This document shows, piece by piece, positions 40,501 to 43,500 of a DNA stretch of 64,000 nt (position 1 is the stretch's first letter; every line of letters starts with the position of its first letter). Origin of the DNA: Amphiscolops sp. MND2022. Taxonomy: Eukaryota. The stretch covers positions 43,960,001 to 44,024,000 of the forward strand of contig OZ076409.1 in assembly GCA_964187785.1 (NCBI GenBank), read 5' to 3'. Under the pieces are notes generated by a model. It was given only the letters and a program-made list of their open reading frames with translations. It was not told the origin of the DNA and made no database searches. Position numbers and translations under genes: made by a program.

Positions 40501-43500
40501 TAGTGGAGACAATCATCTAAGTATTCACATTTCATATGATATTCTCTTATTAGCGAAATATTTTTATTCATGAATATAATGTGCTTTCGTGTTGGGGGAT
40601 ATTCCTATCAAGGTGTACCTGGGGGGGGGGGGGGGGGAGATGACATGGTCCAACATTTTTTCAACTCGAGACTGTATTGCAAAATCAAATGATTTCATTC
40701 ATTTTAAAACGCATTAAGACGACGTTAGACTATCAGCAAGGTGAAATGTTAAGCATCATCTTGTGTGTGGTTCATTAATCACTCCGGTGTCTAACCTGTT
40801 AAATTGGTGAAAGACTAGAACTGAAACAGAATATACTGTGCCGTAATTTTCATATTCATCACAGTGTTTGAACTTTCTGAGCCACATTCAAACCCAGGAA
40901 CCTTTGACTGAATAGTACAAAATAGGCTAAATATCACTGAAAGAAAGCGGTGTAAAACATAGTTTCCTTAATTTTTAGTCGGCGTTTTTGTAACAAAAAA
41001 TACCAGACTCTCACAGTAGCAAGCTTTTTTTGTCAGACCACAGACCTTCCTAGCTATTGATCCCCATTTGACCCTTTAGAAACTGTGGCTAGTTTCTAAG
41101 CTACTGTAGCTATTGTGATGGAAAAATTGTCAGTGAATGCCTCAGCTAGAAACTGGTGAAAAATAACAAAAAGCACCTGGCGAGAATCTAGTTTTGAGCT
41201 TTGGTCGCTCGATAAACGAGGTGTCACAAGGAAAAAAGCTTCCGCATTTCCGTATAGTTATCTTATAGCGAGTGTAATGAGTTGATTAGCCCTCCAACAG
41301 ATGAAACCATCCACTCAATAACTTTTCCATGTATAGGAAATCCCGTTATTGGTCACCAAAAACTCAAAAATTAAAAGATCAAAAAATCCCCTGATTTTAA
41401 GGCATTTTCACAAAATAAACCATCAAATCAGCGGTTTTCCGATACGGGCCACAAAAACCCCAAAAATTAAAAGTCCTCAAAACCATTGATTTTAAGCACT
41501 TTTTAGAAAACAAATCATCGCGAAAGCTCCCGCAAAATAGTGTTTTTACCATGAAGCAAAAATTCACTAACCTCTATGATGCGCGAAGCTACGCGCGAAG
41601 CTACGCAATGTGTAATAATAACACGTTGCTGTACAGCCAACGTTAATGTACAACCAGCGTTAATGCACAACCAGCATTAATGCACAACCAGCATTAATGC
41701 ACAACCAGCATTAATGCACAACCAGCATTAATACACAACCAGCGTTAATGCACAACCAGCATTAATGCACAACCAACGTTAATGTACAGCCAGCATTAAT
41801 ACACAACCAGCATTAATGCACAACCAGCGTTAATGCACAACCAGCGTTAATGTACAACCAGCGTTAATGTACAACCAGCGTTAATGTACAACCAACGTTA
41901 ATGTACCGGCGCATACGTTATTCTTATAAAACTAAAACTAACATTGATTCGTCTCCCATAGCTTAGTGGTTATAGCATTGACTAAAGTTAAGGCTTCGGC
42001 CGGAGTGTTTGGGGTTCACTTCTATCCAACGTCCCCCAGTCTTTGTTACAACTTACATGTTATGGGAGAATAATCACCAATGGCACAGTTCTTAAAAAGG
42101 ATAATCCCTGCTGTGGAAACTCTTAGTGGAACGGACTCCCGATGGGCTTTGAGTTTACCATAGGCATGTCAATGCATATGCTAATGAGCATGCCTATGGG
42201 TTTTGCGTAGCTTCGCGTATTTTTCAACTTTTTCATCTTAATAAATGTATGAAACTCCGTCTCTTCATAAGTTTGGTTATTCTAGTGAACAGCTAAAACT
42301 GAGGGAATATCAGGAGCTAAAAGATATGATAAAAAGTCAAGAAAAATTAGCCCAAATAACCCATTCCAAATTAAAAGAAGATTTGCAACGCGATTTTGAA
42401 AATGACATAGAAAATCAAGAGAAATTAATAGAAGAAAAAATACTAGACGCGGTAGCTATCGCGAAAGGGCACCAAACACTAGACCCACAGGAAATTCAAG
42501 ATGTTTTATTAAACACAAAGTTAATGAATGATATTTATTCCCAGTTTTCAGACCTTTCAAAAAACATAAATAAATTAGAACAAAATATGAAAAAATCTTT
42601 CGCCGAACAAAGAACTGCCTTAGTAAATGAGGTACTAAATTTAATACACAACAATAGTTTTGAAATGTTAACAGTCCGTAATTTAAAGTTTATGAGTCAG
42701 GTGGGACAAGCTGGAATGATTTTAAATGAAGATGAAATAGATAATATTCTTAATAGCCTAGATCAAAATAAAATTACTATAACTAACAACATAATTCAAC
42801 TGCTTTATGACAAAGGTTTGTTCGATTCCTTTCCCAATAAAGATCAAGCTTTTGCAAATTATCTAACTTTTAGTGAATCCTATTTAAAGGAAAAGTATGG
42901 AAAAACAATACCTACTTCAGATGGTGAATATTATCTGTCGGATTTAGAATATTCTACCATACAATCAATTCTGGAGTCATTGAAAAAAGACAATTTTAAA
43001 GACCTTGTTGATATGAAACACAGAATGAAATTAACACCAACGGAAATAAATTTCATTTTATATGATTAATAAATGGAACAAAAACTCTATCCCTCCCTGA
43101 CCCCCGCGACAGCTAACGCAACGGCCTCTCCCCCCGCACCATATGATGTAGAATCAATGATAAATAAACACTTACAAAGCGAATTACAAAAAGTAAATAC
43201 TTTCAATAATTCTATTCAAAACATTAGTCTAATGATGAAATATTATGAAATGGAAGAAAATAAATACAAACAGAAATACAACAAATACAAGCTAATAAAT
43301 AACTTAATTAACTCCCTCGATGGTATTATAGTGATTGGAACAACTTCAGCATCAATCTCACTAAGTATTACTGGTGTGGGTATTATAGTTGTTCCAATCG
43401 CTACAGGAGTTGGTTGTACAACTGGTATCCTTGTTAAGATTTGTTCTAGTTATTTGAAGAAAAAGGAGCAAAATTATAAACTTAAGTACACTATTATTCA

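Follow-up and report, generated by a model that had tools for sequence, protein, structure and literature searches.

A candidate RNA cassette in the TIR of a Polinton

The window analysed here is a 64,000-nt stretch of genomic DNA from Amphiscolops sp. MND2022 (contig OZ076409.1, positions 43,960,001 to 44,024,000). It holds a Polinton/Maverick element whose features are collected in Table 1, and this element has the TIRs, integrase, packaging ATPase and DJR capsid expected of a Polinton, in agreement with a preliminary description of the locus. A first look gave 2,628-2,969 candidates for the capsid gene in the 1.07-Gb genome, figures that are not copy numbers. The 942-aa ORF at the pPolB position carries an Endonuclease VII domain at residues 500-541 and has no polymerase match in Pfam; from its size and place it may nevertheless be the polymerase.

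A noticeably GC-richer island (43.8% GC, as against 33.3% for the whole Polinton) lies between the tandem array of the left TIR and ORF1, which starts 40 nt past the cassette. The preliminary description had given this location and quoted a number of motifs within the island, each of which is found at its place, although the island proves to be itself a part of the TIR. Only the first 120 nt of the island (the head) recur in every subfamily of the cassette; subfamilies A and B have the leader and the head (41951-42070) in common and nothing else.

Table 1. Features of the cassette and of its host element (positions are those of the window)
Feature	Position	Strand	Remarks
Polinton/Maverick host element	41331-57534	+	TIRs, DJR capsid, rve integrase, A32 ATPase
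Outer TIR and 17-nt tandem array	41331-41903	+	Upstream of the cassette
AT-rich leader	41921-41950	+	Present in both A and B; varies more than the head
TATA-like box in leader	41925-41931	+	At about -26; TTC/G context at the presumed start
Conserved 120-nt head, presumed 5' RNA domain	41951-42070	+	Sole part common to all subfamilies
Terminal stem, 5' strand	41952-41962	+	Pairs with 42059-42069
Box A, exact match	41959-41969	+	TRGCNNAGYGG
Inner helix, 5' strand GACT	41980-41983	+	Pairs with 42038-42041
3-bp hairpin, UUCG/UUCA loop	41992-42001	+	Predicted in most folds
Box B-like motif GGTTCACTTC	42013-42022	+	C in place of the invariant A of tRNA genes
Terminal stem, 3' strand	42059-42069	+	
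Type-A tail	42071-42199	+	A pair of irregular hairpins, then an 11-bp stem
Last stem of type-A tail	42158-42168/42189-42199	+	11 bp, free loop length
Presumed Pol III terminator	42201-42224	+	T4 at 42201-42204, T5 at 42220-42224
ORF1	42245-43069	+	274 aa, of no known family; nearest gene on the inner side of the cassette
ORF at the pPolB position	43914-46742		942 aa; Endonuclease_7 the only Pfam match
DJR capsid gene	48617-49861	-	
rve integrase gene	49918-50856	-	
A32 packaging ATPase gene	50891-51967		
Right TIR of the window copy	57163-57534		Ends before reaching cassette sequence
(A)ATAAAT(G) motif sites	42239-42247, 43066-43075, 43907-43916, 52541-52550, 57150-57159		
12-nt micro-repeat, examples	41581-41606, 43607-43759, 52913-53014		Also at loci L093, L098, L103

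Distribution of the cassette among Polinton copies

A search of the genome with the island gave 715 candidates. Scores were computed for 40 of these, and the 30 best, once retrieved, all proved to be Polinton left ends. Head matches often occur in inverted pairs ~14.5 kb apart, and in 7/7 such pairs, a set selected by this very arrangement, a TIR of 587-723 bp has the island as its inner end. A fairer sample than one chosen by the inverted-pair pattern is obtained by picking left ends via the capsid gene, and 34 of the 40 left ends in such a sample carry the head; among the six that do not, only L095 reaches the TIR/ORF1 junction. At the other end of the element the cassette is present in 9 of the 18 right ends reached (of 20 matching), and the window copy is of the left-only type, with a cassette at its left TIR and none at its right TIR. 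TIR length is polymorphic within one subfamily (right ends L239-L258), at ~160-330 bp without and ~580-700 bp with the cassette, which suggests end-to-end conversion.

Heads in which the standard leader was forbidden were found at 3 places genome-wide, as against 664 head candidates, with an exact pattern that old, diverged SINEs would escape; all 3 lie in Polinton sequence. Since leader-free heads are nearly absent and the cassette is present in many Polinton ends, it is neither a private insertion nor a SINE family of such form. The possibility of a host SINE inserted only in this copy, raised in the preliminary description, is thus contradicted by the many cassette-bearing ends.

Subfamily B was found by means of a pattern that excluded the commonest form of the head (16 places), followed by a search with one of those places. 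It is older than subfamily A, and its capsid genes are no longer intact: matches were obtained in 9 of 10 regions, always in pieces. The capsid tree took in 5 of the 10 B regions, and broken genes and long branches blur the place of subfamily B in it. The same tree contains a sister clade without the cassette (7 rows, support 96/98), the capsid genes of which are intact. Since this clade thrives without it, the cassette must be regarded as accessory. One element of the clade (L053) keeps a decayed relic head at its end, which suggests that the cassette was lost there. A profile search of 18 loci from the ends of cassette-less elements yielded no homologue; its best matches, of 30 and 26 bits, were considered as heads and rejected, as they score alike on both strands and are palindromes. 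Two right ends of a recently expanded cassette-less subfamily (L067, L068) have a remnant resembling the last type-A hairpin, with a T run, just before the first ORF; no head is detectable in them.

Promoter motifs and conservation of the head

Box A is an exact match to the consensus TRGCNNAGYGG, as had been described, and it is the sole match in the Polinton when both strands are scanned. Its shared alleles (those in at least 3 of 78 rows) fall at the R and the two N positions, together with one at G16 that occurs in 3 rows. No part of the head varies less than the box B-like stretch, where minor alleles amount to 1.4% and none is shared among the 78 distinct rows. The "degenerate box B" of the preliminary description therefore stands as a near-invariant motif, and it is a non-canonical one: host tRNA genes have a canonical box B with the invariant A, and the cassette has C at that place. 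A TATA at -30 is present in several host U6 genes, along with the TTC/G context of the cassette. No match by position to the PSE was found between host U6 genes and the cassette, and a GTTATT-like word lies upstream of both, but at different spacings. The host U6 genes are arranged in convergent pairs with 60 nt between the two members (L200-L203, C3:315168-319044), and there are two promoter types among them.

Model R1, which was built from these same copies, scores the head at 138.9 bits in the sense direction and 21.3 bits in antisense. When the window is compared with 11 B copies, identity (substitutions) is 86.4% in the head (1128/1305), 87.4% in ORF1 and 81.9% at fourfold sites; constraint on the head is thus modest, since its identity is no higher than that of ORF1 and ~4.5 points above that of fourfold sites. 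The head aligns with host tRNA-Lys better than 1000/1000 shuffles, and its alignment with tRNA-Arg is not significant (79/1000 shuffles). Genes for tRNA-Lys(TTT) form long tandem arrays in this genome, with a unit of ~193 nt and many anticodon variants (L130-L159; C7, C8, C1504), and there are tRNA-Arg(TCT) arrays on C8.

Predicted fold and covariation

The fold of the island is more stable than 200/200 shuffles (z -4.15 and -4.22). Folding energy alone is weak proof of a functional RNA, since 11 of 268 120-nt windows of the same Polinton reach z<-3.5. The non-coding DNA of this Polinton family folds readily in general, and the spacer at 52160-52548, between the ATPase gene and the next ORF, reaches z -8.6; both of its strands fold, which is a DNA-type pattern. 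TAGTGA/TCACTA micro-repeats make up a large inverted repeat in this spacer, and the word TAGTGAT is common to it and the hairpins of the B-type tail. Among the older copies there are several that fold poorly, 4 of 10 sense folds giving z values of -0.9 to -1.8.

Covariation was assessed in 38 of the 76 aligned or listed variants, a set that excludes most single-change type-A copies, copies with large indels and truncated heads. Three pairs of the terminal stem vary on both sides. Pair 8 is G-U in 19 variants, A-U in 15 and G-C in 4, and is broken in none; pair 10 is G-C in 20, A-U in 11 and G-U in 4, and is broken in 3; pair 7 is A-U in 13, C-G in 10 and U-G in 4, and is broken in 11, with a C·U mismatch in 8 of the 38. 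Further in, pair 41981/42040 is A-U in 71 and U-A in 6 of the 78 distinct rows, with one gap and no mismatch (A-U 35 and U-A 3 in the 38-variant set). The two-sided changes in the rod are few and inherited, amounting to approximately four independent events. The covariation score of the rod exceeds 500/500 shuffles and every slid control, and the number of covarying pairs is not above that of shuffles (81/500 reach it). RNAalifold independently predicted the terminal and inner helices. The small UUCG/UUCA hairpin shows no two-sided change, with 94.7% of its cells paired, and the apical part of the rod model, in which the 38 variants likewise contain no two-sided change, is predicted only. These observations support a predicted head fold in which a rod pairs the 5' and 3' ends and box A lies in the terminal stem.

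The stems of the preliminary description fared unevenly. Absence of covariation had been named there as grounds for abandoning a structured RNA, and the rod stems do covary. The core of its acceptor-like stem, 41952-41962/42059-42069, is the covarying terminal stem just described; the outer extension (41945-41949/42072-42076) is not conserved, since the leader differs between copies. Its D-arm, and its GGAGTG/CACTTC stem with the associated pseudoknot, show no two-sided change in the 38 variants. The TTGAC/GTTAA stem has one two-sided case, in a single sequence, and its pair 31-38 is broken in 4 rows in which the rival pair 31-91 holds. All covariation support for the fold first proposed stems from the terminal stem that it shares with the rod.

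Tails and terminator

In the window copy of the cassette the first T4 lies right past the 11-bp hairpin, as previously described, and among 80 type-A tails 78 have it one base past their last stem. The stem itself is retained, with a loop that can be as short as 8 nt or as long as 44 nt. Indels of at least 3 nt in 81 type-A copies are of 9 kinds, none of which touches either box or the terminal stem; one of the type-A deletions (13 nt) takes out part of the inner rod. The CCA behind the type-A stem was considered as a tRNA 3' end and was rejected, as type B has no CCA.

The type-B tail consists of 2-12 repeats of ~48 nt, each a 14-bp hairpin rich in G·U pairs. A unit pattern that fixed part of the stem and left the loop free found 107 units in 26 loci, and 94 of the 107 have GNRA loops; the change of GAAA to GUAA loops, though spread, may be one event. 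A run of at least four T is present within 30 nt of the last detected unit in 12 of the 26 loci. The full B unit folds with z -5.11 in sense and +0.13 in antisense, and a single hairpin unit has -12.7 versus -3.2 kcal/mol on the two strands as RNA and -4.2 versus -3.3 as DNA, so that the strand asymmetry of the B tail is almost gone under DNA energies. The contrast between this RNA-only, sense-only tail and the spacer at 52160-52548, which folds on both strands, is the best argument for selection on RNA.

Searches beyond the genome

Rfam has no match to the island up to E=10, nor to two B-subfamily heads up to E=5. A search of public viral contigs (viral_contigs) with the capsid protein gave 0 relatives and an exact 21-mer of the cassette gave 0 matches in metagenome_contigs; none of the loci found there with degenerate patterns (4 metagenome, 6 viral) is cassette-like or Polinton-ORF-like, L191 having been compared by BLAST only. 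Titles and abstract openings in the literature outside subscription papers revealed no published Polinton-encoded Pol III RNA. A search of sequencing runs gave two runs, with word shares of 0.09 and 0.24, in the form of assembled contigs that are uninformative on transcription, strand or level. Among the contigs of RNA run X1, five of the eight listed pieces lie on the cassette (41971-42205), three on ORF1 and none on the upstream array; run X2 has one contig, over 41970-42168, with 16 differences. Cassette variants thus exist in two other samples.

Comparison with known Pol III RNAs

Adenoviruses are related to Polintons, and small Pol III RNAs are known in adenoviruses, gammaherpesviruses, a bocavirus and some retroviruses. 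PKR, a target of one such RNA, is a vertebrate protein, and an anti-PKR role for the cassette is unlikely on that account. The long apical stem and the tetrastem of VA RNA (PMC6599070 and PMC7589676) are also missing, which points the same way. VA RNA has box A in its terminal stem and box B in its apical part, and the terminal stem is cut by Dicer and bound by Exportin-5 (PMC7589676). The cassette resembles adenovirus VA RNAI/II (PMC7589676 and PMC6599070) in having the layout of a virus-borne Pol III-type gene with intragenic boxes. In both, box A lies on the 5' side of a terminal stem that joins the two ends (in the cassette it overlaps the covarying 41952-41962/42059-42069), a multi-way junction occupies the centre, and a tRNA origin is proposed; the predicted apical part of the cassette has a box B-like motif where VA RNA has its box B. 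It is unlike VA RNA in several respects. The box B-like motif of its apical hairpin is near-invariant without having the invariant A; the GGGU/ACCC tetrastem is absent (there is a GGGU at 42012-42015 and no ACCC in the window head); and the apical hairpin is short and irregular, whereas VA RNA has a long apical stem that is its PKR-binding part. VA RNA is ~160 nt long with four U directly at its 3' end, whereas the first T4 of the cassette comes at least 130 nt past the terminal stem, after the hairpin tail. Finally, the cassette has no Rfam match and sits in a TIR.

The TMERs of murine gammaherpesvirus 68 (MHV68), which are tRNA-pre-miRNA chimeras, and retroviral Pol III pre-miRNAs share with the cassette a layout, and a layout only, in which a promoter head (tRNA-derived), hairpins and a T run form one Pol III unit (PMC4378190). 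The cassette head is a rod and not the tRNA cloverleaf of an MHV68 TMER, from which pre-miRNAs are freed by cleavage, and the tail of subfamily B is made of near-identical GNRA-loop repeats that would be better suited to a multivalent binding scaffold than to miRNA precursors. The tail stems, of 11-14 bp, also differ from those of a TMER; a typical Dicer substrate is longer than this. BocaSR of human bocavirus is a 140-nt Pol III RNA with A and B boxes that comes from the non-coding end of a parvovirus genome and is needed for DNA replication (PMC11194592). The cassette is likewise a small Pol III-type unit with A/B boxes in a non-coding end region of a linear DNA, but the virus group is unrelated, and BocaSR is essential for replication in that account whereas the cassette is absent from a thriving sister clade.

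The tRNA-like fold first proposed for the island is not borne out, as ARAGORN finds 0 tRNA genes and the head has no cloverleaf with D-arm, 7-nt anticodon loop and T-loop. Like tRNA-derived SINEs, the cassette joins a tRNA-like head with boxes A and B to an unrelated body; unlike them, it has no dispersed copies with independent flanks and is always found in a Polinton TIR with its upstream leader. The cassette is a member of neither the VA RNA, the TMER, the tRNA nor the SINE families. Of the original proposal that the element encodes a structured Pol III-type gene, anatomy and variation thus support the gene, and the tRNA-mimic fold and the features of VA RNA membership fall away.

A putative Pol III RNA and its possible roles

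In our judgement the cassette probably encodes a Pol III RNA of the Polinton, a putative transcript that is VA-RNA-like in layout and is not a VA RNA. It would be a small non-coding RNA gene of the Polinton that is read by host RNA polymerase III: TFIIIC would bind box A and the variant box B, the TATA-like leader would help to set the start at G41951, and transcription would stop at the first T run. We consider it likely that Pol III transcribes the cassette from G41951 to the T run. The predicted length of the RNA is ~250 nt for subfamily A and some 250-600 nt for subfamily B. Its constant head would be an irregular double-stranded rod, with ~33 nt per side, that a three-way junction closes, and its tail, which can be exchanged, would be a series of short hairpins. 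A tRNA gene is the probable source of the promoter, and the RNA would no longer be tRNA-folded. By analogy with the terminal stem of VA RNA, the most likely role of such an RNA, given about half of the weight if the RNA is real, would be that of an abundant decoy which occupies Dicer, dsRBD proteins and Exportin-5 and so eases the silencing of the Polinton.

The same Pol III gene could instead have a local job at the Polinton end, where the RNA or its transcription would aid protein-primed replication at the TIR in the manner of BocaSR or EBER2, or TFIIIC on the boxes would act as a barrier that shields the inward promoters from silent chromatin; tDNAs can have such barrier activity. We think this different function somewhat unlikely, and its weight is a share of that given above to a Pol III RNA. 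It would accord with the position of the cassette at the inner TIR edge, pointing inward, at one or both ends, and it has a precedent in BocaSR with its part in parvovirus DNA replication (PMC11194592); however, the cassette is missing from 9 of 18 right ends and from the entire sister clade, and covarying helices and RNA-only hairpin arrays would be superfluous for a pure DNA barrier. More distant from a functional RNA, and unlikely in our view, is a neutral or decaying tRNA/SINE-like fragment captured in the TIR, the compensations and hairpins of which arose by quasi-palindrome template switching and tandem slippage during strand-displacement replication. The defective box B, the relic head of L053 in the cassette-less clade, the large inverted repeats of other Polinton spacers, and a conservation of the head that is not above that of ORF1 and ~4.5 points over fourfold sites all agree with such a fragment. 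Template switching should, however, give stems with perfect Watson-Crick pairing on either strand, like those of the spacer at 52160-52548, whereas many G·U pairs are kept in the cassette and the B tail folds only in sense and as RNA; moreover, a T run ends both of the unrelated tails, and free host copies with the cassette head were not found with the genome-wide pattern.

The TATA-like box at about -26 and the inward orientation would also fit a Pol II promoter followed by a structured, possibly IRES-like 5' leader for the first inward ORF at each end, and there is indeed an ORF close by in each case, ORF1 40 nt past the cassette and ORF12 next to it at right ends. This seems quite improbable to us: the exact box A, the invariant box B-like motif and the T run behind each tail type are marks of Pol III, ORF12 is intact without a cassette in the window copy and in 9 of 18 right ends, and the ORFs start with an (A)TAAATG motif of their own.

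To return to the Pol III RNA, we offer as a tentative and rather doubtful generalization that animal Polintons build Pol III RNA genes from tRNA promoters as TIR modules, in which a fixed rod head would be joined to exchangeable GNRA arrays that serve as a multivalent anti-silencing decoy. If this were true and recurrent across Polintons, VA-type RNAs would be a general counter-defence of Polintons and adenoviruses and not an adenovirus invention. The cassette is a concrete, testable candidate for the means by which Polintons, in the face of small-RNA silencing, attain hundreds of intact copies, and for the origin of VA RNA; a natural comparison is at hand in one genome, where some clades carry the cassette, others carry it with another tail and one lacks it.

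Other features of the window

The Polinton copy in the window is flanked by a direct duplication of ~67 nt (41264-41330 and 57535-57601), and its left end is without the first terminal bases that are present at its right end; the target duplication of Polintons is usually 6 bp. The (A)ATAAAT(G) motif ahead of the ORFs joins a poly(A)-like signal to a start codon. A 12-nt GC-rich micro-repeat occurs at many places across Polinton copies, in ORFs as well as in cassette linkers and loops, and may reflect a polymerase-linked insertion habit. Outside the Polinton, the window contains pieces of an LTR retrotransposon (integrase, zinc knuckle) and a CLIC-like host ORF, which is indicative of an animal host, at 13127-16754 (-) and 63593-63976 (-).
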